DNA from: Candidatus Omnitrophota bacterium
Lineage (GTDB): Bacteria; Omnitrophota; Gorgyraeia; VGKN01
DNA: 64,000 nt
Direction of reading: 5' to 3'
NCBI GenBank assembly: GCA_020052955.1
Contig: JAGVOB010000004.1
Span: 12,522-76,521, forward strand
Below, in pieces: positions 1 to 64,000 of this stretch. A model generated the notes under the pieces. That model was not told the origin of the DNA, searched no databases, and saw only the letters and a program-made list of their open reading frames with translations. Numbering within the stretch: position 1 is the first letter of the stretch; every line of letters begins with the position of its first letter. A program made the position numbers and the translations under genes.

Positions 1-927
1 TATGGTCTAGAGGATATTTTTGAGATTTCATATGATAAACCAAGGCATACTATCACCGTTAGTCTACAAAATGAAAATCCAAAACCTGCTAAAGGCGGCT
101 CGATATTCCTGACGCCAAAGCATCTTCCAAAGGCATTTTTGGAGACCCCAGCAATCTTCCTTATGACATACGGATTGCTGGAGCTCCCGATAGCGGCTAA
201 CCTCTTAGGTATAGCAGGCGTTCCCTATGCGGTTAGTATTGGATACCTAGTTGCTCACGCTATAGGGGTGCTTCTTGACGCGCGCAGGGAAGGCCATAGC
301 GGATGGAAAGAAGCCCTGCAAACACTTAATCCGTTTAACAGGCCGGAGGTGTATATATTAACAATCCTGACAGGTTTTATAGGATATATGGTAGTGGCAT
401 TCGGCTGGGTAAGCCCGATAACATTAAGCGCGATTGCCGTCCTGACAGGTATCCACTGGCTGATTAACAGGTATTTCTACCCCAAAGAGGTGCGCTCATT
501 ATTCGGCAGGCTGGTTGAGATAGAGGCAAGGCTAAAGAATGATATGACTGATGAGGCGCTTAGCCAGATATCCGATATATTTAACGACATAGGCAATGAC
601 AAGGTAAAGACAGAAACGCTGAAGAAACTCCTGATAACGCGTAGCGGCGCCCTAAATGAGACCTTTGAATCAACAAGCAAGATAATGGCATTGGCTTATA
701 TGCTTTATGAAAATAAAACAGATGAAGCTGCTGCATTTGCGCAACAGCACAATTTAGCAGGCCTTGCTGCACAAGATAGTATAAACTCTATAGTAGATGC
801 TATAAGAGATGCATTGAAAGAAAAAACAGGCTTGGCTGCTGTATCATTGCAAGCTACTCCCGATACAACAACGGCTTCCACCACCATAACACTTAAGAAT
901 TTATTGACTGAACTCACCCAGAAGTAA
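1..927 (+). CDS. 3' end of an upstream paralogous giant membrane protein gene (partial, truncated by window start)
   Basis: Reading frame 1 is open from nt 1 through the TAA at 925-927 (the ATG at 139 is internal). Two TM segments are followed by a helical tail ending ...TTITLKNLLTELTQK*, which resembles the C-terminus of the 20,408-aa ORF (...TTIPRTQTLRELLIEFKQL*). The sequence TAACCGTATCATTTTT at and after the stop is identical to that after the giant ORF. Confidence 0.6.
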   Translation, partial: YGLEDIFEISYDKPRHTITVSLQNENPKPAKGGSIFLTPKHLPKAFLETPAIFLMTYGLLELPIAANLLGIAGVPYAVSIGYLVAHAIGVLLDARREGHSGWKEALQTLNPFNRPEVYILTILTGFIGYMVVAFGWVSPITLSAIAVLTGIHWLINRYFYPKEVRSLFGRLVEIEARLKNDMTDEALSQISDIFNDIGNDKVKTETLKKLLITRSGALNETFESTSKIMALAYMLYENKTDEAAAFAQQHNLAGLAAQDSINSIVDAIRDALKEKTGLAAVSLQATPDTTTASTTITLKNLLTELTQK

Positions 928-950
928 CCGTATCATTTTTTGTGTAACTA
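925..950 (+). other. conserved stop-codon context / 3' flank element (copy 1): TAACCGTATCATTTTTTGTGTAAC
   Basis: Near-identical to 62583-62608 (TAACCGTATCATTTTTAATGTAAC) following the giant ORF stop. Conserved across tandem paralogs. Confidence 0.5.
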
Positions 951-1207
951 TTTATAAAATAATATGTTATATAACAAGATGAGTCTAGGGTATCAGATTT
1001 AATTTTTCCTATACTTTTATTTTTAGAAAGGTCTGATTTTGTTTCTAACATTCAGAAAAACGGGGAAATTAATTAACGCTTCCCGGCAGAGCAACCACAT
1101 AATAATGAATGTATTATGCTTACTTGTAAAATCAAACAAAATTTAGATAATTGATCCTTGTATTTTTATGGAGACAGGATATAATTATAGTATGAAAACC
1201 TTAATGG

Positions 1208-1358: not shown

Positions 1359-4300
1359 ATGGTAGACTGGCAGACAGGCGGTAAAAAAATGTGGATTAGA
1401 CTAATAGCCTTGGTTATAGCCGAGGTTTTTTTATTTACATCGATAGACCTGCCGTTTAGTAATTCTAACGCATATGCGTCTCCCCAGGAAAAACTTGTTC
1501 CCCCCATGCTCACAGGCAAATCCAAGGCCGACTCCCAAAGAGCAAGAGAAAATGAAATTATAGAAGGTCTGCTTCCATATCTTTTGAGAGACTTGAGGCA
1601 GCTTTATCCGGACGAATCTGCCCAGCAGATAATGTTAAGGGTACATAAACAATATAGCGATAGGATTACATGGTTTTCGGTTATGGGAATGACTGAAGAT
1701 AAACTGGGTCAGCCGGGGCATACCTATGCCTTTTCAATAGATAATAAAAAGGAGCCGGCACATTTTATAAGCGTTACCGTAACAGATGGTGCGACAAAAC
1801 TCCAGCCTTTGGATAAGATAAGTTTTGTAGATGATATAAGAAATAACAGAATCCGCCCCATCTCATTCTCTAATTTACCGATAACTGTTGCAGAGGTATT
1901 TGAGGTTCAAGGGGCCGGAGAAGGCGGGGGAAAAGAATTAAATATTGTTAAACTAGACAGTACAGACTTACTGTCTAAGGCAGCGGGGCTTTCGGGCTTG
2001 CTAATTGGTTACAGCGCAGGAGAGGGTAATATTGTATGGCGCATAGTCCTTGGGCTCGATGGTGTTTTCCTGCCAGGCCCGGGCACTATTATAAAACTTT
2101 CTCAGATAAATGACCTGGCTCAGATACTCCAAGCCCTAAAGGGCGGAACTGGACTTCCACAGGCAGATTTAGAGTTAACCCCGGAGAGATTAAAGTTAAT
2201 CCCTGCTATAACAGCTCCAGGCGCTCCTCAATTCCAATTAGTAAGAGCCGCAGCCACTAAAGAGGATGCCTCAATCACAGATAAACCCTTACGGGTATAT
2301 GTCTCAGAAGTTAATGTTGCAAAAGAGCCAGATATAAAGACACATCCGCCTACGGGGCCTCCGACAGGCTCCCTTGGCTTGTCTGCCATTATTCATCAAG
2401 CACCTATCACAGTAACCGTTTCCCAAATAACACCCCCTACCACAAGTAAAGTCCAAGTAGCTAAAGTAGAACAACCTGTAACTCCGCCCGCCGAAGAAGA
2501 AACCGCTCAGACACAAGAATTAGCCGAGACAATAGCAAGCCTTCAAAGACAGCTTGACCTTGCAAACCTCCTTCTTTTTACTCCATATCCTTCCAAAATA
2601 ATTTCTGCGCTTAGTGAAGCAATTAGGGTTGCAGAAGATGCGCTTAATAAACCAACACCTGATTTAGAGTCTCTAAGAGTGGCTGAGCTATACCTTAGTA
2701 GTGCTATAAATGAAGCCGTTATGACAGAGCCGATATCATACGTTTCTAGCTTACCGCAAGCCACAACACCACCCAGCGTAATTCCTCCGCCAACAGCAAC
2801 CTCCGCCTCTGTTACGCCCGAGCTGCTACAGGTAGCAGTAATTGAACCAACCAAAGGTGCGGTTGTAATGCCAAGGGTAGGACAATTGGCTGTTAAATTA
2901 GCGGCACTTGAGCCAGCAGGCGCTGCGGGAGAAGTTATAGTTACGGGAACAACGAGCAGTGTTTCTTCAGCCGCACCATCAACAGCAGCGGTTCAGCCTC
3001 TAAGAGCGGAGAAAGAATTAAGGGTTTCTGCTCCTGCCGTACCGTCTTCTATCAGTCCAGCCACTCAAATATTAGAGATTGTGATAAGGGCGCGGGCGTT
3101 ACTTACCAAAGCCAACAAAGAAAATGTTGTGAGCTTGTTAAAACAAACTGATATCCAAATATTAAAAGCCGCCCAGACAGAACTCGTAGATATAATAGGT
3201 ATCCAACCGACAGAAATTATGGCAACAGATGCTATAAGAATTGTTAAATTTACGGGGGTTCAACTTTATTACCAAAACGGAATGCCATATCTGACAGAGG
3301 TTATTGGAAAACTGCAGATTTATGATGCCCAATTTGAGAAGTTGTTTAGACAGTTAGCGGCCATAAGAGCGAGCGAAACAGTAGAGATAAGAGGCGCGAT
3401 AGAAAAAGTTCAATTGGCAAAATGGCAGTTTATAACAAAGGTTGTGCAGGAAGCGATTATTTTAAGAGAGCCAAGCGCGGCTATATCTACGGCACATATT
3501 TCCCCGGCAGTAACTTCAGCTGGCACTGCTGGGGCTAGTTTACCTTCAGTGCAAGGTCCAAAGGTAGTTGCTCTGGCAGAAAAACAATCTACAAGAGCTG
3601 TTGCAACTACAACAGGACAAGCAATGGCTACTACCGGCGTAACCAAACCTATAGTTGCTTCTGCTTCGCTTCCCACTGCGAGATCGACAACACTCGGACC
3701 GGCTGTGCGAACAGCTAAGGTAGCTAGTACATCTATCGCAATACCTGAAGTTGCGCCAACGATAGCACCTGCAGTCGTTCCGCAAGTTAAACCATCCAAA
3801 ACTACAGCCACCGCTACTGCTGCCGCAGTTCAGCCAACCACCAAAGGTATTTTTATACCCGAGTCCATTAAAAGGATTATAGTTACAGTTTCCCTGCTGG
3901 GAGTTTTGATTTTACTGCAAAATATACTTCCTTTACCCGGATTAGACAAGCTTGGAATGGGTATAGGCAGTATGTTTGGAATGAAGAGTGGGATATTTGG
4001 CCTTGGTCTTCAGCCTTATATCATCGCTTCTTCCTTGGTTCAAGTAGGTGCCGCCTTTATCCCTGCCCTTAAGAAATATGCGGAACTCGGCAAAAGCGGA
4101 CAGGCGAAACTGGCCGGGTACACTATGATACTTACGCCTATTATTGCGCTATTTTTAGGATTCTCTAATTTAGCTTCTATTGGTGGTATGTTTGCAATTG
4201 GTGGACTGACTATTTCAGGCCCGTTATTTTTAATATTAGCAGTTTTGGGTATGTCTCTTGGTTCGTTCTTGATAGCATTTGTCGGGGAAAGGATAACCAA

Positions 4301-7300
4301 GCATGGTTTGGGTCAGGGCACAACACTTATTATATTTACAAGTATATTAACCTCAATCCTTACCTCAGGGGCATCTGTTTTAAGCGGGGTTTCTGCGCTT
4401 CACATTTTCTCCATTTTAGCGCTAGGTGTAGTAGCAATTGTTTTACATGTCGTTACATTTAAGATACCACTTAAATTTGTAAGCAACATTAAAGAGGTAA
4501 AAGGGGAACTTCCTCTTAGAATGAACTACACAGGCACAAATGCCATTATGATAAGCTCTATGTTAGCGTCGCTTTTAGGCGCTGCTATGGGCGGTTGGCA
4601 GGGTATACTTATAAACAGCATAGCCATACTGGCTATGACAATTTTTACCACATACAGCACATTTACTCCTGATAAGTTGAGCAAAAACCTAAGTGCTCTC
4701 GGCGTCCAAGTGCCGGGAGTAGACGAGAGTAAATTAGGAAGTTATATATGGCGAAAAAGACTTTTATGGATAACGATACTGGGCGGCGTGGCTGTGGTGT
4801 TACTCGCTGGCTTACCAGGTCTTATATTAAACGGATTTAATCCCGCGCAGGCAGGTCCTGCAGGAATGGGTGCGATATTCGGAGGAAGTACGTTATTGTT
4901 GTTGGCGAATGCGCTGGTTGAGGTTTGGAATAATATAAGATATGCAGGGGCAAAGGGAGAAGCGCGAGGAGAGATTCAGCTGGCAGCAAAAGTCCAGAAG
5001 AAACCTATTATAAAAGTAGCAGGGTTTACCATTAAACAGATTTTGCCTTTTGGTATAACAGTTGCAAGTTTAGCAGGGATAGTTCTATTAAGTAATTATC
5101 TTGCCACAATAGGCGCTCTTATCGCGTTTATGTCAGGTATCTCTGTATTCGTTGTAATGGCGGCTATAATTAGTGCAATAGGTTATGGCGTGTATCTTAT
5201 AAGAAAGCATCAAATAGATTTTAATAAGTCTGTGGAGTTTTTAGGTGAGCTTACAGCGGGCCCAGCGTTTTTAATAGAAAACAGGGTTAAAGATTTTATG
5301 AATGAAGCGGAGACTGCCGCTAACCTGCCAGAAAATAGCAGATTTATTGAACAGTATGTAGAAGCACATAGAGGCGTTGCCGAAGAGCTTATCTTAAGAG
5401 AGCGCGCCAAGACAGAGATTATGAGACAATATATCGTTAAAAAGACGCACGAACAGTTATTATCTGATAAAACCGCAAGCTATGAAGAGGCTGATGCGCA
5501 TCTAGGGAAAATAAGGATAGATGCCATTGCCTTAGGCATTACCGCAATACAGTTATACAGGAGACGCGTTTCGGGTGAGACCAGGCTAGAGGCAGATAAG
5601 CTTACAGGCGCCAAAAGGATTATAAGGGAAAATCCCGTAGCCGATTTTACAATTCATAGAAATCAGATATTCGGCATATGGTTTTTGACTGAGATTAAAC
5701 ACTTTAGGGGCAGATTTATGACATATTTAGTAAGGATATTGAGTCCGTTCCTTCCTGAGGAGGCAATGGCAAAGATTAAGGGGTATGCCGTACAGGTTCC
5801 CACAGGTGAAGGTAAAAAGGAAATGGTTGGAATTGCCGCATATGTAATGTCAAGGGCGAACAAGGGAGTGCTTTTGGCAACGCATGCGCCGGACCTTGTA
5901 TATGAACAGGCAGTGGATATGGGCGATATATTTGCCTCGTGGCTTGATACGTCAGTTGGCGCAGTAGGCATACCAAACGAACAGGGAGAACAGACGTATT
6001 ATACCTTCAAATATGATTCAGATATGAATGAGGTAGAGGTAAGGCATGAAAAAGAGACGGCCAAATTTATACCTGCATATGCGTGCGGCGCTACATACGG
6101 CACGATGTCAGCATTTAACTTTCATAAACAGTTAGAAAGGATGGGTAGAGAAATTAGAAGAATTTATTCTGCCATACTAGATGAGATAGACGAGATTTTG
6201 CTTATGCAGGGCGTAAACCCTCACATCATATCTAAAGGCGATAAGGATCCGTTTGTAGAATTGGTTAATCAGCATATGGAAGACATTCTTAAGGTTATCT
6301 CCAGATTAGAAGCCGGAGAGCTTATATATGAACAAGGCCGGGTGCAGTTGGTTAATGCAGGACGCATAGAGGAGATTCTTAAGGATAAAGCGCACTCAAG
6401 AGAGGTAGCGGCAATATTTAACGACTATAGAATCGCAAGCTTTATAATAGGACGCCTGGTTAAGGAGTTAGCTGATAATCCGGATAATTACACCGTTGAC
6501 GAAGAAACAAGAAGAGCAACATTAACAGATAATGCAAAGGAATATATCAAAGAGTTTCTCGGAATTCCCGATGATAAGAATCTAAATGAATGTCCGGCGC
6601 TTGCGCATTTTGTGTGGGCTGCAATGAACGTTCAATTTAACTGCAGAAGGACTACGAAAGAATTAAGCGATTTATTTATGGTTATCTCCCAATTAAGAAA
6701 GGGAGATGTTAGATTTGACGCGGCTTCTGGAAAGGCGAGTTTTGCTGATCAGGGAATTATAGAGAAGATACTACGAGACGAGGAGCGCGTAATGGCTGTA
6801 TCCAGCGTACTTAGCGATCCGACACGCCACATAATAGGTTATTTAATAGGAGAGATGCGGAAAGATAAAACCAATTTTGTTCTTAAAGATGGAAAACCAG
6901 CGTTAAGCGATAAAGGAAGTAGATATATAAAAGAATTCCTTGGAATTCCCGAAGAAGCAAATCTTAAAGATTATCCCAGTCTTTCAAGCTTGATAGAAAA
7001 AGCATCTGATTTTAGCGCTAAGCCGAATGTTTCTATAGAATATGGTCTGGTTGAGATTAAGGATGATAAGAGTAATATAATAGGTTATGACGTAGTAGGT
7101 TATAACTCATCAACAGGCCAGTGGATGATAGGCCAGACCTATACCGACATACATCAGGCTATGGTTATTAAGGAGTTGTTTGCTGAGGTAAATAAGGGCG
7201 TAAGAGGCAAGATACGCTTTGTGGCAGAAAATGAGGCTATAAGCCAGCAGATGAACCAGTTATTCCTTAAGGATTGTTATCATGAGGCGGGAACATCGGC

Positions 7301-13300: not shown

Positions 13301-16300
13301 AGCCGCAACGGTAATTGAAGAAGTATTAAGAGCCCCCACGCCTCCGGGCGCCCCGCAGAAAGACCCGAATAATGAGAAATTCCTCAAATGGCTTGCAGAG
13401 CAGTTAAAGAACTGGGCAGCCCATCCGGAAAGGGGACTTCCGCCTATAGGGGGTGGCCTTATACAGAAACTGGCAAGCCAGAATGAGCAGGCAAGAAAAC
13501 TGCTTGAGGATATTGTGTCCGGAAAGGTAAGGATAATAGTTGATATTAGTTCTGGCGCATCAGTTGAGAAGGCGGGCTTACATCTTAGGTCTATGGCTGA
13601 ATATGCCTTAAGAAATGGTGGTATAGTTGATGGCCAGCGTGTCATATTCTTAGGGATTGAGCCAAAGACAGGCCTGTTTGACGCAGCAGTAAGGCAATTG
13701 GCTAATACTGATAATGTAATCTTAATTCAGAGCGGGCTTGGCAAGCTTCCGCAGGAATTTAAAGGAATAGTATTACCTGACCTTAAATTCTGGAGAGTAA
13801 TTGTTACTGCGCCTGAGCCTGATATGCTGGCAAAGGATTTTGGATTACTTACAGACGCAGCAAGATTAGCGCAGGACAAGGTAATAGTAGTTACCGAATT
13901 TATGCCCACGATGAAAGCGCCTGTGCCAGGAGGGCTTGAAAGCACTCCTTGGTTAGATGCCCTTAAACAGACTTTATCAGCCTGGCAGTATAATCCTGTC
14001 AGAGTAACATCGGATAAAGTGCCTGCATTTATAAATTCAGATACATTTAGATGGTTACAGTTAGGCAAGAGCCAGGTTGAGGGGCTTCGCTGGGGAGGAG
14101 ATTACTGGTATCATGAATTTATGAGAAATGGCGCACCTTCAATTATAATCCTGCCATTTATTCTTGAGAGCCTCAAGGAACAGCCGGTTGTTCCAGCCAC
14201 TCCATCTATTCCTACCCCTGTTTCAGGCATGCCTGGCATATTATCGGGCGTAGGTATGGCATTATCCTTTGCATTATTGGGCGGGGTAATGAGCGTTGTA
14301 TTTATAAAATCTCCGAGGCGTGCAAGAAAGTTTATTATAGCCTTAGCAGGTGCGTTTACGTTAGCTATGCTCTCAGGCGCTCTGATGCCTACCTATGCGG
14401 CAGAAAGACAATTGGGCTTAGGCGTAGTTACTTATAAAGAGAGCGGCCTTGGAGACTATGTTAACAGGTTAAATGCAGATATAGGGGTAAAGGCATTAGA
14501 CCAGGTTGAGATTTTACCCAATACCCTATTTTCTTTTGACTCTTACGTTCAAGGATACATATCTGAGGGCCATCCCCTTAAGGGCGATAAAGAGAAATTT
14601 GGCGCAGGGCTTTGCGATGTAGCAACAGCCCTCAGGCGTTCAATAGAAAACAGTTATGGGCCTCCTGTTATCGTAGAACTTGGAGAAGATGATGTTAGTT
14701 CAGTTGCCTCCATTGAATTCCCTCAAAGGCTGGCTAATGCGACTGTAATCGGTTTTAAACTACCGCGATACGCGGCGATAAATCAGGAACAGGCAAATGC
14801 ATTACTGAGCAGGGTATTAGAAACTTATCCAAATGTAAAGATTGCGTATATATATACCTCTCACGGTGAGGAATTTTATAACGGAGAGGGCGCTTCCGTA
14901 TTTTTCTATGAGAATTTAACAGCGAGTTCACCGCGCCAGGATATCTGGCTCTTAACACAAGAGCCATACCTGATTGATACTAATAGCCCGGATGATACCT
15001 TGCAGGAATTAAACATAAGTTTAATTTCTAAGGCAGCGACAACAACCGAAGACGCGCTTGCCGAGGAAGAGCAATTCACCTTATCAACCCTCCTATCTTA
15101 TCTGACCACCTCGGAGATTAGAGCCCAGGGAGCAGGCGATATAATAACAGCAATTTTAGCCATAATCATTATGGCTGTGTTAGGCAGGGGAAGAATTCCT
15201 AAATTTATTAACGCAATACCCGCACCTTCCGGCAGAGGACGGTTTAATTTACGCTTACCTTCATTGCTAAGGGTTATTGTTTTAGCAGGTTTTGCTCTGG
15301 CATTAGCCGCCTGCGCAACTGCGACGCCACAGCCAACCCCGACACCAATAAGCCAGGCGGATATACCGTCCTATACCGAACGCGTACTTTCCCAGATTGA
15401 TGAGGGAAAATATCCTTTACTGCGGGCAGAGCTTAAGAGAGTAGGCGTAATCAATAACCAGATAGAATATCCGGTAATGGTTGAATATGGCTTAAGCGCT
15501 GACGGCAAAACAGCCACTATTAAGAGCGTTACGATAAATCCCGAGCTTTTCCTTAATATGCCGGCAAATATAAGGGAAAGCTATCTTCTGCACGAGGAAG
15601 AACATTTAAGCCCCGCGAGCCTTGATTTGGCTCGGGCTATTCAAATATTGAATAAACATTTCTTCGGCGGCATAGATTTATCCAAATCAGAAAAGGAAAT
15701 AATGGAGGAATTAAACCGAAGAATCGTAAACGACCCCAAAGAAAGAGAATTATTCAAGCATTACGTTGCCCTGCGCGTCCAATATGAATATCTAGGCAAC
15801 AGGAAGCAGTTTGATTACATACTTAATAATCGGATAGATATAAATAATCTGATAAGCAAAGAACAAAACCCCGGCGTTAAAGCGGTCTTGGGCAATATAA
15901 ATGAATTTATGCAGGTAGCCCAAATTGACAAGCCGCAAGCTCAGATAAACGAGAGAATCTTTAAAATAGCGATACTCAGAAACCCAATATGGAATGACCC
16001 ACGGCTAATTTATGATTTTACCCTGGCTATTGAGCAGATAGAGCATCCCGAGCTTAAGTTAGTACAATCCGGCGGCAGATGGCAGATGAGCCCGGCTTAT
16101 ATAGGCACTGACGGACTTCCCACTCTGCCGATATGGGATTATCTCACCATACCTGATTATTATTCGCCCGATATCATAAATACTCTCCAGCAGTCTGCAG
16201 TTGGCGTGCCCCACCTTGCAAGGCCCGTTTCGCCCGCTCTGACACAGCCCCTGACTGCAGGCCAGACAGGCATATGGGCAGTTATTATAGGTATATTATT

Positions 16301-19300
16301 TAGTATCTTATTTATAAACAATCCTATTACAAGAAGATTCAAATTAACTTGGTTAAAGCGCATTGCTATTTTAGGAGGTCTTCTCATTCTATTGACCGCC
16401 TGCTCAAGGCCACAGGCTTTACCAACTGCAACACCTACTATGACACAAACCGCAACCTATACCCAGACGTCCACAGCCACGTATACTTCAACGCCGACAC
16501 AAACATTCACACCGACATCAACTTCTACACCGACAGAAACGCCGACATCTACGCCGACCGAGACGCCGACCCAAACGCCAACTTTGACGCCTACAGCAAC
16601 ACCTTTACCTCTCCAGAATTTTTTAGCTGGTGGAACTAACATTGGAAGCTGGTTGATATTTTTCATAGGATTTGGCGTATTATCATTTGGCGTTATAGTC
16701 CTATTACATAAAACAATTAACCTCAATAGCATTGGGCTTACATTAGGAGGTTTAATAGTTGTAGCGCTTGGAGCTGTTGGTTTGTATTACAGCTCTCAAG
16801 TACAAAATTTCGCTAAGCCGGCAACTGCTATCCAAAAGGCAATAGACTCTACAACGCTTTTTCTTGTCAGGGCAGGCGTCTTTTTAACAGGAATAGAAAT
16901 AATGTATTTATCAGCTCTGGTTATCTCTTTCATCTTAAGTAAGATTAAAATATTAGGACCATTCGCGAAGGTTTTCAGCTTGATAGGTAAGATATTGAAA
17001 ATACCGCTAAAAGAACTGTTAAAAAAACCGGTACTAGGACTAATAACTCTCGCGATAATTATTCTCCCATTTCTTATGCGCCTTATTCCTTTGCCAACCT
17101 CTTATGCTATTCAGCAAGGAGACTTTCAACTGATAGAAACATTACTTTATCTCAGGCATCCGATAACAGTAACTGACAAAGATGCACTTATACAAATAAT
17201 AGGCAAATTATATGATGAGGGCAACGGCATCACGCGATTTTATGTTGCAGACCCTTCAACAGGAGATTTAAAAAGCGTTGACGCGTACTATCTGCTGGCA
17301 TATCCCGAATCAATTAATTTTACTCTAACCCGTGAAAAGGACAAGGACGGCTATTACATAAAGATACAGGAAAATAAGATACAAGAAATTACTCCTACTC
17401 CTCAAGGTTCTATCCCGGGTGCACCACACCTTGCAAGACCCACTATGCCAGAGAGCCAGGTTGCTGTCTCGGGGGTGAATACCCTGTCCACATTTATTAT
17501 AGGTATATTATCCCTTATCTTATTCACAAACAATCCTATTACAAGAAGATTCAAATTAACTTGGTTAAAGCGCATTGCTATTTTAGGAGGCATTCTCATT
17601 CTGTTGACCGCCTGTGCAACTGTGACTCCAGTGCCTCAGGAGGCGACAATACAGCCCGGAAGCCTTGAAGAACTGCAAGTGAGAATAATAGAAAACAGGC
17701 TGATTAATGAACTCTTATTCAATTATGAAAACCAGGAGGCAATAATACAGGTATCCCGGGAATATGAAGTTGACCCGCGATTGTTAACCTCTGTTGTTAT
17801 GATGGAGATTGCAAGCCGCGATCCAAGTGAAGATTTATGGGATAATTTAAAAGATGAAGCCAGGGAAATATTAAACAGAGACCTTGAGGCTACCTCTTTC
17901 GGTATAGGACAGATACGAATTGACACAGCGCGCGATATGCTCGGCTACCTAAAGGCAGAGAACAAGCTCGGCGATTTGGAACTCGGCTACCTGATACAGG
18001 AATCATTTTCGGATGAGAATATAGAGAAAATCCTTGAAAACGACCATGACAATATCTACATAGCAGGAAGGTATGTAAGATGGATTATAGATACATTAGA
18101 AGGCGCGGGCATAGAGGCAGATATTTACACCGTAGGATTCGGCTATAATGGTATCGGTCGGATAACAAACTTTGATGAATTTGAGCCGGAAGTGCAGCAG
18201 GCGATAAGTGACTACAGGGCCGAACACACAGAAATATTCAAGCTGGTATATAATGCCACATACTACGAGTCATTGCTGAAGATTAACTATCTGCCTTCAT
18301 GGTCGTCATATCTTCTGGGAGCGCCTTCTAGCGCAGGAGAATTTATCAATGGTTTCTATGATGCCGATTCAGTCGGTTTTAAGAGCTACTGGGCGGTTTA
18401 TGACGGCGTATATACAAAACCGCATAACATCCTTCCTGAATTTAGCGGTTTATACAATGCCTCCGTATTCGGCGAGGTGCGCTCAGGAGCCATTAACCTT
18501 CCTGACGGCAGGGTTCTTCAGATGTACGAAAACAGCATCCTTGAGCTTACCTCCAATGGCATAGTCAAGCAGTATCCGTATGCGGCGTATATTTTGCAGG
18601 GGATGCGCTCGGGATTCGACCAGGATTTCATAAATCATCTATCGGCATCGCCCAATGTGCCGGGGAAATTCTCTAATTTTATAGCCTCAAATAATATCGG
18701 GGCACAGCTGGGCTCGCTTCTTACTGACGCATTTGACATGAAAAACTTCCCAATTGACGGCGGTGAAAAATCCGTCAGGATACAATTCTTTGAAGGAGGC
18801 GTGCTCATAGCGGAGAAAAATTTGCTTGGAATTCCCGGGGACGTAAGGCTTGCCACGGTAGATTCGGTAGTCAGATATCTTGAGTCAGTGCACTCCTACG
18901 CATATGATATGCCGCCTTACGATCCTCTCTTAAAACCGCAGCCGGCTCCAACATCAACCCCGCTTCCAACGCCTGAGCTTGGGTCGTATATTGTGCTTTA
19001 TTCGGTTGGCCAGACAATAGAGGTGACTACAAAGCAAGCCATCATTGATGTTATTATGGCCACTAACCAGCGGAGGATAGCTCATCAAGAAGAGTCCATT
19101 CAGTATTTCTATCCCGAGACCCAGTGGACAGGCGAACCCTATGCCCATTATCTCGGGGATGTAACCAGAGAGAGCCTTGTCGAGCTTCTTAAGGATTTCC
19201 CTGACTCGGGATTTATTATGCGCCTTACACTCCAGCAGGGTGACGTCGCCCCGTTTATCAGGATAACCGAGATTGAAACAACAGGTGCTGTTTCGCCCGC

Positions 19301-55300: not shown

Positions 55301-58300
55301 GGTAAGGATAGAAAAGGAGGATGAGCGTTCTCTTGAAGCCTTGATGGACTCTCTCATCCAACCCCACAGAGAAGAATTTAAACCTCTTGTTGAGCAATAC
55401 TGGGCTACTGAGGATAGTAAAAAACGGCAATCTTTGGAAACACGAATAAACGCCATAATGGATACCATAAACGTATACAAAGGCACAGAAGCATCTGAGC
55501 TTGAACTGGCTGATGTTCTGTCTTTGGATGAGTTCTTAGAAACCCCATATGCCCAAAGATACATAGAACTTGCAAAACATGCACTTCTATTTGGGCAGTA
55601 TATCCCGGAGTTTATATTTGCAGGTGCGGCAACAAGGCTTAATAAAAATTTAGAAGATTTAGGCTTACCTTCTACCGGTCCTATGTATCCATTAGATATC
55701 TGGAGTATTGCCGAAGAAGAAAAGATAGGTCTTATACCACCCAGCGGAGCACGCTTAAGACTTGGGATGGGGCCAAGACAGATTATCGCCTATAGGAGAT
55801 ACTTAGAGAACTTAGCCAGAGAGCAGGGTGTTAGTCCAAAGACAGTCCTTAAAAACCAAAGACTCGTCATCCATATAAACGATGAGATATTTGATATGGT
55901 CTTAGATGATTTTATCAAAAACGACTTTTATGGATTTAGTCCAGATAAGGTGTTCTTCATCAATGTAGACCTAAAATCAGGATATCTCCTTACTGAAGAG
56001 GGAAAACTCACCCCATCCAAAGATAGCCCAAAATTGCCCTATGGTCATGGCTATGCAAGTATGCAGATGGTAAAACCAGGCCTTGCCTTTACCATTGATA
56101 TATCGCAGCAATCTACAGATAGAAATAAACAACTCCGTTATCTTAAAGGAGATATGCTTAGTTATCTTATAGACCATGATGCGGCTTTAATTGGCACACA
56201 CAGGTTAAATGACCTAACCAAATTCACTCCAACTCAGGTTGTGGACATAGAAAAACTTGCCTTTGGTATGTATCTCATTGAACAAGGAAATGAGGTGATA
56301 GTGGATTCAGTTGAGAATCCGGAAAACCAGAAAGGCGGCCAGCTATTACAGAATAAGGATACAAGGAAGAAATTTCTTATAGAAGTTTCCAATTTTAGAG
56401 GAAGCCCGGGGCTTGATTCGTTGATTAAAAGAGGCGTAAATGTGCCATACAATGCCTTTAGACTCTTATATGACCTTAAAGCAGCAAAGAGGCTTCTTTT
56501 TCAGGGGATTTCTTATAATGTAAGATTTAAGGATGGTTACTTCTATTTAGAATCTGTAACAGGAGATGTTACCCAGCTTATAGATGCCAAAGTTGCAGGT
56601 ATTAAAAGACAAGGTGAGCTAATCCACGACTTCAAAGAACTCGATAATCTTAACGACGCACTTACATTCTTAGGGCAAAGCGATGAAGAGATTAGGGTTG
56701 GCAAACTGATAGAGTTTTTTGAAGAGGACGCGGTTAAGAAAATAATAAAGCGTCTTGGTGGAATGGAAGGAAGAGCAGTTATTCTTATAGGAGGAACTCC
56801 AGGCGCAGGCCTCAAATATTTTGCAAATGTAATACTTAATGAACTTGGAAAGAGAAATAGGCGCGCTAACATCCTTTCTGCTTATAATTATTATAAAGAC
56901 TGGACAGAGATGCCACACAGGAAAGATGGTACCCTTGATTTTGAATCGCCTCATAGCCTTGATATAGAGTTGTTGAGGTCACACGTTAAAGAACTGCTTA
57001 AAGGTAATACTGTGCAGATTCCTCAATATGACTTTACAGAAGGCAGAAGAACAGATATGACAACCAGCATAAGGCTTGAGGAGGGCGAGGTGTTGATTCT
57101 TGAGGCTATTCATGGTTTAAGCGATGAATTTTTAGCAATGGCAGAAGGTGTGCCTGTGGTTAAAGTGTTTGTTGATTCAGATGAAAACATTCGGCTCCTT
57201 CGCAGGATGGGTGAATATGCAAGTGAAAGAAAAATAGACCCTATAGTAACCATAGAAAGATGGGATCGGGTTAAAGAGGCCGAGGTTTCCTTTGCGAACC
57301 CCACAAGGCAGAAAGCAGAACTTGTTGTTAACACAGGAGATGTTGTGGAATTTAGGAAAAATGAAGTTTCCAAGATGCTTCCTGTTTTAAATAGTGCCTT
57401 GAACAGGGCTTTACAAGAGAACAAACACAGCGTTGCTGATAAGATTAAAGAACTCCAGCGATTCTTAAGCAGTCTGCCTATTGAGTCGATGGATAAATTA
57501 ATTAAGGCTGCAAGGTCAAAACTGGCTATGCACAAGAAACCGGTAGTTATTGCTATAGATGGCATACATGGAGTTGGAAAGACAAGCACTGCAGAATTAC
57601 TCGCAGGAATCATAGACGGAATTTACATATCCCTTGGCGAGATATACCGTGTGGTTACCTGGCTTGGGTTAGAATACGGTTTAGATATCCATAATCCAGA
57701 AGATATCGCAAAACTTAGAGGATTTTTATCGCAGATAACGACTCTTGAAAAAGACTATCACGTTAGGTTCATATGCGTCAAGGACGATGCACCTTTAGAC
57801 ATTACCGAAGAACTGTACACAGAGCGAATCAGCAAAAATGTGTCTGATTTTGCAGAATATATTCATAATGAAGTAATAGAGTTTTCTAGGGAAATTGTGG
57901 GAGCCCTCAAGAAAAGAGGTAAAAACGTGATAATTGAAGGACGGATTGCAGGCACTCACATCGCACCCGACGCCGATGCAAAAGTCTTCCTAAACGCAGA
58001 TTATATTACAACAGCCTCAAGAAGGGTAGAACAATATATACAAGAAGCCGATATCTCTGGGGAACCTATGATTTTCAAGACCTCATGGGAAAGGCTTATT
58101 GCAAAACTTAAGAAAGTATATTTTGAGGTATTTGGTCCTATGAGCGAAGAGGATTTTGAACACAGACTTACATTATATGGCTACGAGGGCCTAAAAAATG
58201 AATTACTGGCTGAAATAAACTTACGACTTAAAGCAAGAGACGAAAGAGACGAAAATCATATCGAACAATATATGCCCCCCGTAGATGCCAAAGTGACCCA

Positions 58301-63081: not shown

Positions 63082-64000
63082 ATGATAGACTGGCAGACAG
63101 GTAATCACAAGTTCTGGTTAAAACTTATAACCTTGGTTATAGCCGAGGTGTTTTTATTTACCTCAATAGACCTTCCTTTATCAAAGCCCGATATCGCCCA
63201 CGCCTCTCCAACTGAAAAATTAGCGCCGCCGTTAGTCACAGGCGGTCAATCCGATAAAGCCCCTATTAGAAAAGCAAGGCGAGTTGCCGGAGAAGACACA
63301 TTACAAACTGCCGCACAAGACCTGCCGATAGTTGTTGAGGGAGATAATCTATTTAAAGCAATAGATAAAGCAGTTAAGCACATCTCTCAAGATGACATAG
63401 CGCAGAGTGGAAATAAAGACAATATCCCCGCCCTACTCTTAAATATCAATAACAGGTGGGTCCTTTTGTTGTTAAATACCTTAACAAGAGACAATATACC
63501 GCAAAACGTATTGGATATGTTGGGCTCTGAGATAGTAGAGCGCCTGATAGAAAGCGGTATGGAGCAGCCTGCAAGAGCAGACCTATCTACTGCGGATGCA
63601 CCAGGCATGCAAATAAGCCAGGCTGTTTTAGGCGATGGCCGCTTATCGTTGAAATTAGACGAAAGAGGAGCTATCTTATTATCCGGAGAAGATGATAACA
63701 GATTAACCCTTGTTGATTTACAGGTAGATATGGAGAAGGTGCCTGATTGGCTGAGGCCGCCTCAACAAGGCCCTCCCGTCGCTGTCTCCACGTCTGCCAT
63801 TTCAGTTCAGTTTAGATTTGTAAATCTTAATCTGTCCGCATCTGAAAGCACAGTAGAAACAGCAGAAGTAGCACCAGCTACACCCCTACAAGCAAGGCCA
63901 GCTAGCGCAGCGGAACTCAAGCGCGCCGAAGAAGCCCTCAAGCAAGCCCAAGCAGCAGCTATTCCAGTAACAGTTACAGCACACCCGGCAATACAAATTC
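63082..64000 (+). CDS. 5' end of a downstream paralogous giant-protein gene (partial, runs off the window end)
   Basis: ATG at 63082 is preceded by AAAGGG (63068-63073) with the same 8-nt spacing as the giant ORF. N-terminus MIDWQTGNHKFWLKLITLVIAEVFLFTSIDLPL is nearly identical to MVDWQTGGKKMWIRLIALVIAEVFLFTSIDLPF of the giant ORF. The frame stays open to nt 64000 with no stop (checked codon by codon). Confidence 0.7.
   Translation, partial: MIDWQTGNHKFWLKLITLVIAEVFLFTSIDLPLSKPDIAHASPTEKLAPPLVTGGQSDKAPIRKARRVAGEDTLQTAAQDLPIVVEGDNLFKAIDKAVKHISQDDIAQSGNKDNIPALLLNINNRWVLLLLNTLTRDNIPQNVLDMLGSEIVERLIESGMEQPARADLSTADAPGMQISQAVLGDGRLSLKLDERGAILLSGEDDNRLTLVDLQVDMEKVPDWLRPPQQGPPVAVSTSAISVQFRFVNLNLSASESTVETAEVAPATPLQARPASAAELKRAEEALKQAQAAAIPVTVTAHPAIQI

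Follow-up and report, generated by a model that had tools for sequence, protein, structure and literature searches.

Tse3, the muramidase of the Pseudomonas aeruginosa type VI secretion system (T6SS), has Glu250 as its catalytic residue, with Ser275 and Gln280 lining the groove, and has been credited with a possibly calcium-assisted mechanism (PMC3792639). For the giant proteins of the Omnitrophota, the published account (West-Roberts et al. 2023, 10.1101/2023.11.21.568195) reports SecA domains inside these proteins, with SecYEG encoded separately and not in synteny, and lists the SLT lytic transglycosylase as a 'less common' domain linked to cell-wall degradation. The present work concerns a domain of this kind in a stretch of 64,000 nucleotides, here called the window, from a Candidatus Omnitrophota bacterium (contig JAGVOB010000004.1, positions 12,522 to 76,521). 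The window contains a single open reading frame (ORF) of 61.2 kb for a protein of 20,408 amino acids (aa), with zero stop codons across 61 kb. Residues 5419–5653 of this giant protein, in frame with it, form the module described below. A first-pass annotation, made from the sequence alone, had called this region a lytic transglycosylase-like module and had connected it with reports of wall-degrading domains in giant genes, a connection that the listing above bears out.

We propose that the module is a divergent lysozyme-like (SLT/GH23-fold) domain of a Tse3-like branch that cleaves glycan strands, that it lies on the periplasmic (outer) face of the cytoplasmic membrane, and that it is a built-in space-maker for the producer's own sacculus. 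To this explanation as a whole we assign a probability of about 0.5. The enzyme identity, argued from sequence and from a structural model, is held with good confidence; the location, read from sequence features, is probable; and the role, suggested by analogy, is tentative, a little short of an even chance.

Motifs, relatives and predicted fold of the module

The translation across the region reads ...NTLSTFIIGILSLILFTNNPITRRFKLTWLKRIAILGGILILLTAC-ATVTPVPQEATIQPGS-LEELQVRIIENRL...VDPRLLTSVVMMEIASRDP...ATSFGIGQIRIDTARD...KILENDHDNIYIAGRYVRWIIDTL...ADIYTVGFGYNGIGRITNFDE...; residue numbers within the module take the lipobox Cys as 1. This translation contains the hairpin, the LLTAC and, after it, the three SLT-type motifs, as the first-pass annotation had stated. 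The interval then given, 17700–18130, lies in the right region and is slightly too short: the domain exceeds it on both sides, motif III crosses position 18130, and GYNG is wholly beyond it (Table 1). The module is single-copy, and no paralogues of it were found within the giant protein.

In Pfam, the only match of the module is to Tse3_cat (PF22115), over profile positions 89–187 of 189 (E 2.7e-4; 21.2–21.4 bits against a gathering threshold of 27). When compared with all PDB sequences, only the Tse3 entries match (E 7.7e-4), and in the alignment the MMEIAS Glu falls on that in 'ILAEQRD' of Tse3, which is Glu250. Word-indexed searches of 5.8 billion proteins gave zero matches, both with the module alone and with an alignment of the module and its ortholog, which is described below. 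When 1.84 billion cluster representatives were searched exhaustively with HMMER, a single match emerged, P0001 (E 5.4e-4), which has ILIDEIARMAP, TSIGIAQIKIETARD and NIFLAAARTRYLID in common with the module (pairwise E 6e-13). The profile built from the module and P0001 collected 180 proteins of ~300 aa, and those with a source name are labelled as Parcubacteria or other bacteria of the Candidate Phyla Radiation (CPR). The window module and 66 of these CPR relatives were aligned (67 sequences, alignment A3); the members match DUF1402 (63/67), DUF3892 (44/67), Tse3_cat (31/67) and, at E ≤ 0.01, SLT PF01464 (18/67). The 67-sequence profile reaches Tse3 in the PDB at E 3e-8, and goose-type lysozyme faintly. 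The Pfam, PDB and 1.84-billion searches thus agree on one family and one catalytic register, which argues for more than chance.

One ortholog within giant proteins was found by a scan of GTDB species genomes, in contig CAZOIE010000095.1 (L001; 6,157 bp, one open frame), labelled 'uncultured Planctomycetia bacterium'. Its identity to the window protein is 51–52% across hairpin, module and following domain, and 46% for the module alone; the longest identical run is KILENDHDNIYIAARY. Two scans of metagenome contigs of the Joint Genome Institute (JGI), made with different conserved peptides, gave no further relatives. The ortholog's module matches PF01464 at 18.7 bits against a threshold of 21.3 (E 1.3e-3), over the C-terminal, motif-III part, where it reads GAAYNIGVGSI and resembles the canonical A-Y-N-x-G of SLT enzymes. 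In NCBIfam, neither module nor the domain that follows it has a match.

The invariant columns of the 67-sequence alignment are D54, L58, E65, S95, G97, Q100 and A106; after the ortholog was added and the set realigned, E65, S95, G97, Q100 and A106 are invariant in 68/68. The Glu of MMEIAS, named beforehand as the residue on whose conservation the assignment hung, is therefore kept throughout and aligns with Tse3 Glu250; it occupies the place of the catalytic acid in the lysozyme-like superfamily, where a helix ends just ahead of the beta-hairpin. The Ser of the same motif, on the other hand, does not behave as a conserved part of it: it is not adjacent to the Glu, as it would be in the classical E-S motif (E-I-A-S), and is replaced by Gln in the ortholog, which keeps MMEV and SIGLGQIQI. 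The second SLT motif is present as G-I-G-Q in the window and G-L-G-Q in the ortholog. For motif III there are two tyrosine candidates, Tyr172 (ADIYTV) and Tyr178 (GFGYNG). The ortholog's Tyr pairs with Y178 in the pairwise ortholog alignment and with Y172 in the family realignment, and since the two disagree, the groove tyrosine is either Y172 or Y178. Y172 had appeared as the invariant tyrosine in a first MAFFT alignment; this assignment was dropped, because the ortholog alignment makes Y178 at least as likely.

The absence of a lysozyme-like fold had been named in the first-pass annotation as grounds for rejecting the assignment. The AlphaFold2 model of the module has a mean predicted local distance difference test (pLDDT) of 70, with core blocks at 84–93, and a predicted template modelling score (pTM) of 0.64; residues 1–13, in the linker, have low pLDDT. 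The modelled structure is a lysozyme-like alpha+beta fold with a substrate groove, and it groups with MltF, Tse3, Slt and goose-type lysozyme. Comparison with known structures gave 9.7 for MltF; 9.3 for Tse3, over 153 aligned residues; 9.2 for phiKZ gp144; 9.1 for Slt; 8.8 for both MltE and MltC; and 8.3 for Slt70. Lysozyme-like chitinases, phage lysins, EtgA, Bdellovibrio DslA and goose-type lysozyme came lower.

The module is followed by a domain of ~225 aa whose fold has no match, and which is 66% identical in the ortholog versus 46% for the catalytic domain. It contains LG-x-P...Q-x-F-E-x-G-like repeats, and may be a substrate-binding partner. No match to it was found in Pfam, nor a credible one in the PDB, where the best was a globin (E 0.014); its single-sequence AlphaFold model has a pLDDT of 36 and is unusable. 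An assignment by eye as LGFP-repeat-like was given up, as it has zero Pfam matches and no credible PDB match.

Hairpin, lipoboxes and membrane side

The module is preceded by a hairpin of two predicted transmembrane (TM) helices, TM1 and TM2, joined by a loop rich in Lys and Arg. This loop has 5 Lys/Arg in 15 residues versus 0–1 in either flank; by the positive-inside rule, this excess predicts that the loop is cytoplasmic and the module on the outer face. The description of the module as 'exported' given earlier is consistent with this loop and with TM2 ending in a lipobox, and stands as a prediction. TM2 has the elements of a lipoprotein signal, namely a basic n-region, a hydrophobic h-region (IAILGGILILL), L-T-A-C, and a Pro/Thr-rich linker after it. 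It would serve, within the chain, as a signal-anchor or as the signal of a lipoprotein, the Lys/Arg-rich loop lying inside and LTAC at the outer end. The domain would then be held ~16 linker residues from TM2, or from a lipid on Cys5419, in a layout like that of the membrane-bound Mlt lipoproteins.

The same arrangement recurs in the giant protein. Five internal lipoboxes, at aa 3477, 4652, 5015, 5419 and 7984, use 5 of the 27 Cys of the protein; when the Cys were shuffled, the mean was 0.1 such sites, with a maximum of 2 in 2,000 trials, and the internal lipoboxes are therefore non-random. Asp at position +2 occurs in 0/5 of them. An earlier copy of the hairpin-plus-lipobox unit is 87% identical in DNA to the unit before the module (Table 1), and the similarity of the duplicated units continues upstream into ...VPHLARP; it is perhaps at such joints that exported modules have been inserted or shuffled. 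A separate lipoprotein gene with an internal translation start was considered and is unlikely, as TM1 and TM2 have no Met between them and the frame is free of stops over 61 kb. A recent survey of Omnitrophota discards internal signal-peptide calls as artefacts (10.64898/2026.06.07.730766), and the literature searched on internal lipoboxes or lipoprotein polyproteins returned nothing relevant.

The module also stands in a definite relation to a translocase-like part of the protein. Pfam identifies a full-length SecY domain (E 5e-36) and, 3′ of it, a SecA_DEAD-like domain (E 3.6e-9). The ortholog is colinear with window aa 1057–2690, which comprise the C-terminal part of SecY and the SecA-like region, and then continues directly with aa 5413–5926. 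The window protein thus has ~2,700 extra residues (aa 2690–5413) of hairpin-led modules between the SecA region and the module. By this colinearity, no other exported module separates the hairpin-lipobox-SLT-like unit of the relative from its SecY-SecA unit, and this direct succession suggests that the module belongs, with the translocase part, to a conserved core.

The internal lipobox tether, the recurrence of lipoboxes and the SecY-SecA adjacency together suggest a further and rather doubtful possibility, in which the giant protein exports itself as a 'polyprotein of lipoproteins'. Each segment would be threaded out by the protein's own SecY/SecA-like unit, Lgt would lipidate the internal Cys, and signal peptidase II would perhaps cut. 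A fragment of ~2,565 aa (Cys5419–Cys7984), with the wall-cutting domain first, would be released or at least lipid-anchored. If this were so, an internal stretch of a giant precursor would in effect become an Mlt-type lipoprotein, and the near-identical duplicated hairpins would be shuffling joints.

Role at the producer's wall and other explanations

In the proposed mechanism, the domain would use Glu5483 as general acid to cleave the N-acetylmuramic acid (MurNAc)-beta-1,4-N-acetylglucosamine (GlcNAc) bond of peptidoglycan. The product would be either 1,6-anhydro-MurNAc, as for a lytic transglycosylase, or a reducing end, as for the muramidase Tse3. The name 'lytic transglycosylase-like' used in the first-pass annotation thus fits as regards the lysozyme-like, glycan-cleaving fold; the lytic transglycosylase chemistry is not established, since the nearest relative, Tse3, is described as a muramidase. 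The producer's sacculus would be opened locally, so that very large exported parts, threaded by the protein's own SecY/SecA-like unit, could cross the wall; by analogy, secretion systems, pili and flagella have dedicated enzymes that lyse peptidoglycan. This role is suggested by the very short tether, by the position directly after the SecY/SecA-like unit, and by the conventional peptidoglycan wall reported for those Omnitrophota that have giant proteins, which keep the complete peptidoglycan pathway (10.64898/2026.06.07.730766).

Several observations weigh against this proposal. The search with PF01464 (SLT), suggested in the first-pass annotation, gave no match to the window module even at E ≤ 10, and the nearest model is instead Tse3_cat. 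No Pfam model reaches its gathering score on the window module, and since the thresholds of both PF01464 and PF22115 are missed, the module is not filed as a member of either family. With a single true ortholog, its conservation within giant proteins rests on two sequences. The relatives in the AlphaFold2 input alignment were all CPR proteins; segments 75–92 and 177–185 of the model are low-confidence, poorly modelled insertions; and Foldseek gives the same ranking (Tse3, MltE, MltC) with weak statistics (best E 0.025). The topology is based on a hydropathy scan and the positive-inside rule, and TM predictions on giant proteins are called unreliable by West-Roberts et al. (2023, 10.1101/2023.11.21.568195). 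Finally, Tse3, the nearest characterised relative, is an antibacterial toxin and not a housekeeping enzyme, which fits an attack on prey.

An attack of this kind is the competitor that survives best, although we consider it unlikely. The domain would be displayed or delivered against an attached prey or host bacterium, whose peptidoglycan it would cut, in parallel to the T6SS effector Tse3 or to DslA, the SLT-domain lysozyme of Bdellovibrio. To the kinship with the toxin Tse3 is added the match in fold to DslA, an enzyme of a predator. CPR bacteria, the source of the nearest sequence family, live attached to other cells, and three HExxH motifs in neighbouring exported modules could belong to peptidases acting on the same target. 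Prey cell-wall digestion has in fact been proposed for giant proteins, with mention of SLT domains, by West-Roberts et al. (2023). However, the tether holds the domain ~16 residues from what is presumably the producer's own membrane, and it is hard to see how it would reach across the producer's own wall and outer membrane. In the ortholog, the module comes directly after the SecY-SecA unit and not at a distal or exposed position; and no immunity-like partner was recognised in the window, though such a partner is hard to test for. Methanosaeta is not known to have murein. It is on this archaeon that the one cultured giant-protein member of the Omnitrophota is described as preying (West-Roberts et al. 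2023).

The two explanations that follow are both improbable. The module could be an inactive remnant whose fold is kept as a glycan-binding or structural spacer. The extreme divergence of the sequence, with one match in 1.84 billion representatives, would agree with this, as would the non-conserved Ser after the Glu, the poorly modelled insertions and the adjacent domain being more conserved than the catalytic one. Nevertheless, the Glu, S-x-G-x-x-Q, the NIYIA-x-RY helix and the motif-III Tyr are kept both in the 46%-identical ortholog and in the CPR family, as one would expect if the enzyme is active; and Tse3 also does without the Ser (AEQRD). Very slightly less probable is another glycan as substrate, the same fold cleaving or binding chitin, chito-oligosaccharides, pseudomurein or an exopolysaccharide. 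The bond type of pseudomurein speaks against it, for lysozyme-fold enzymes are not known to cut its beta-1,3 bonds. The conserved downstream domain could nonetheless set another substrate, and pseudomurein is a subject of speculation in West-Roberts et al. (2023). Chance resemblance, for which it may be said that each sequence match is sub-threshold and that 20,408 aa give many openings for short motifs, is effectively refuted, since three independent searches lead to one family and one catalytic register, the family profile matches Tse3 at E 3e-8, the fold comparison agrees, and the motifs of this single-copy module are kept in the ortholog.

Few exported parts of the giant protein have, like the module, an assignable biochemical activity, and the module offers a testable handle on giant proteins: one Glu, a domain of ~235 aa and a defined substrate. 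From its conserved place beside the SecY/SecA-like unit, opening of the wall would seem to belong to the exit of a megadalton-scale polypeptide. In addition, the lipobox tether hints that giant proteins may be processed or lipidated by a mechanism that was not found described in the literature searched.

The giant gene and comparison with known systems

The features of the module and of its surroundings are listed in Table 1.

Table 1. Positions of the module, its tether and other features in the window
Feature	Window position	Residues (aa)	Strand	Basis or remark
Giant ORF	1359–62585	20,408 in all	+	single ORF
SecY domain	3993–4919	879–1187		Pfam
SecA_DEAD-like domain	5769–6308	1471–1650		Pfam
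Lipobox Cys codons (ATSC, LAAC or LTAC; Pro/Thr/Ser-rich linker after)	11787, 15312, 16401, 17613, 25308		+	
Earlier copy of hairpin-plus-lipobox unit	16272–16406	4972–5016	+	87% DNA identity to 17484–17618, 135 nt
TM1 of hairpin, TLSTFIIGILSLILFTN	17481–17531	~5375–5391	+	hydropathy scan and translation; predicted outside to inside
Lys/Arg-rich loop, NNPITRRFKLTWLKR	17529–17573		+	translation, hydropathy scan; predicted cytoplasmic
TM2, internal lipoprotein-signal-like: IAILGGILILL, then LTAC	17574–17615		+	regex and hydropathy scan
Module	17613–18317	5419–5653	+	translation
Lipobox L-T-A-C	17604–17615; Cys 17613–17615	Cys5419	+	kept as LLAGC (ILLAGC) in the ortholog
Pro/Thr/Gln-rich linker, ATVTPVPQEATIQPGS	17616–17663		+	lipobox Cys to first domain helix; translation, low pLDDT
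Lysozyme-like (SLT/GH23-fold, Tse3-like) catalytic domain, predicted	17664–18317	~5436–5653	+	model and ortholog alignment
Predicted catalytic acid, in VVMMEIAS	17805–17807	Glu5483 (E65)	+	codon GAG; aligns with Tse3 Glu250
Motif II beta-hairpin, TSFGIGQI	17892–17915		+	Ser95, Gly97, Gln100 = Tse3 Ser275, Gly, Gln280; GLMQ of SLT enzymes
Stretch best kept between the two giant-protein orthologs, KILENDHDNIYIAGRY	18027–18074		+	alignments; = Tse3 SDEFNIFATARY
NIYIAGRY	18051–18074		+	translation
Motif III region, ADIYTVGFGYNGIGRI	18117–18164		+	GYNG part 18141–18152
Candidate motif-III Tyr172 (ADIYTV)	18126–18128			
Candidate motif-III Tyr178 (GFGYNG)	18144–18146			
Downstream domain (YLLGAPS...FKSYWAVYDG...IQFFEGGVLIA)	18294–18968	~5646–5870	+	~225 aa, fold without match
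HExxH motifs	10962, 12252, 15591, 61716	3202, 3632, 4745, 20120		
VanW-like match	14388–15116	4344–4586		Pfam
Antisense ORF, rejected as a gene	17723–17926	67 in all	antisense	
Signal-anchor segments	~26946, 29835, 32595	8530, 9493, 10413		three near-identical copies
Uridine-kinase/PRK and cytidylate-kinase domains	~56778–58046	~18474–18896		Pfam
Second giant-type gene	63082–64000		+	runs off the window

Besides the giant ORF, the window contains a gene for a membrane protein of 262 aa upstream and a second giant-type gene downstream. The N-terminus of the latter, MIDWQTGNHKFWLKLITLVIAEVFLFTSIDLP..., is paralogous to that of the giant protein, MVDWQTGGKKMWIRLIALVIAEVFLFTSIDLP..., so that the two genes are tandem giant-type paralogues. 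The antisense ORF that overlaps the module was considered as a competing gene and set aside, being of the kind expected by chance.

The Pfam scan of the giant protein covered aa 1–19,400 in four chunks, up to the last ~1,000 residues. Apart from the SecY and SecA_DEAD-like domains, it found HEAT repeats (HEAT_2, E 6.5e-19) and DUF3131; near the C-terminus it found a uridine-kinase/PRK domain (E 2e-17) and a cytidylate-kinase domain (E 1.5e-24), nucleotide-salvage enzymes embedded in a membrane-anchored giant protein. The hydropathy scan shows 87 hydrophobic peaks; many overlap, and the distinct TM helices are thus fewer than 87.

Four HExxH motifs occur in the giant protein versus 0.2 expected. 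Three of them are situated upstream of the SLT-like module, in hairpin-led exported modules that may be zinc peptidases; Pfam gave no support for the modules that bear the motifs. Eight other hairpin-bounded exported segments were searched in Pfam at E ≤ 1 and gave a weak VanW-like match (PF04294, E 0.1) and noise, nothing credible. This VanW-like module follows a hairpin that has a signal-peptidase-I-like TYA/AE site at the end of its second helix. Further along, a signal-anchor segment (FLTRIRDWLRKNKRRVILTLSILSPILLLAGAYAG and variants) occurs in three almost identical copies, with TSQLQQQPPYL.GFLATPGMLVFL in front of each; the copies mark large tandem duplications, within the protein, of modules of ~950 aa.

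Among known systems, Tse3 (PF22115; PDB 3wa5, 4luq, 4n80) is the only one with a solved structure that was reached by sequence. Glu250, Ser275 and Gln280 of Tse3 align with E65, S95 and Q100 of the module; the FNIFATARY helix aligns with NIYIAGRY; and the Ser of the classical E-S motif is absent from both. The calcium ligands of Tse3, Asp253, Gln254, Glu258, Asp262, Ser275 and Gln280, have only partial counterparts, being aligned with D70, P71, D77, D81, S95 and Q100; in the ortholog, positions 70 and 77 are acidic and 81 is Val, and this region is modelled with low confidence. On the other hand, the structure-based identity is ~17%, the score is below the Pfam threshold (21 vs 27 bits), and the module lacks the N-terminal domain of Tse3, its T6SS context and, among the genes of the window, any immunity partner recognisable as of Tsi3 type. 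The module is also an internal part, predicted to be membrane-tethered, of a protein of 20,408 aa, whereas Tse3 is secreted as a free toxin.

The family-1 lytic transglycosylases (PF01464, GH23) have the same order of motifs: Glu, G-x-x-Q, N-I-x-x-G/A-x-x-Y and A-Y-N-x-G. MltE, MltC and MltF also have the lipobox Cys, a short linker and the catalytic domain in succession. However, the identity of Mlt and SLT enzymes to the module is 12–17%, and the signal of the Mlt lipoproteins is N-terminal, whereas the lipobox of the module is internal, at residue 5419, after TM1 and 5,400 residues.

The closest family by sequence (28–35% identity over ~135 residues) is that of the ~300-aa CPR (Parcubacteria) proteins with DUF3892 and DUF1402/Tse3_cat. 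They have the invariant residues in common with the module, but each is a small, uncharacterised protein that stands by itself, begins with a DUF3892 domain and lacks both hairpin and lipobox, and the residue before the Glu is Asp (IIDE), where the module has Met (MME). The gene neighbourhood of one CPR homologue (P0015) contains housekeeping genes only and is uninformative.

Compared by analogy with enzymes dedicated to secretion machines, such as EtgA of the type III secretion system and TagX of the T6SS, which are separate small proteins recruited to the machine, the module would differ in being covalently part of the exported protein. VirB1 and FlgJ are likewise dedicated peptidoglycan lytic enzymes of envelope-spanning machines.

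With the 'Archaeovorin'-type giant proteins, as described by West-Roberts et al. (2023, 10.1101/2023.11.21.568195), the present protein shares a very long multi-TM ORF, a divergent SecA_DEAD domain and HEAT repeats. It differs from them in that the cut-off used there is a gene of > 90 kb, the present one being 61.2 kb, and in that those proteins are rich in glycosyltransferases, of which none was matched here at E ≤ 0.01 in aa 1–19,400. A SecY-like domain is fused here, while that account does not report one inside giant proteins; a lipobox tether and adjacency to a Sec unit did not come up in the sections of it that were searched. The module was set beside the published giant-protein SLT domains by description. 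An SLT-like domain in a giant protein is thus already known, and what the present module adds to it is the internal lipobox tether, the recurrence of this tether along the protein and the adjacency to a SecY-SecA unit.

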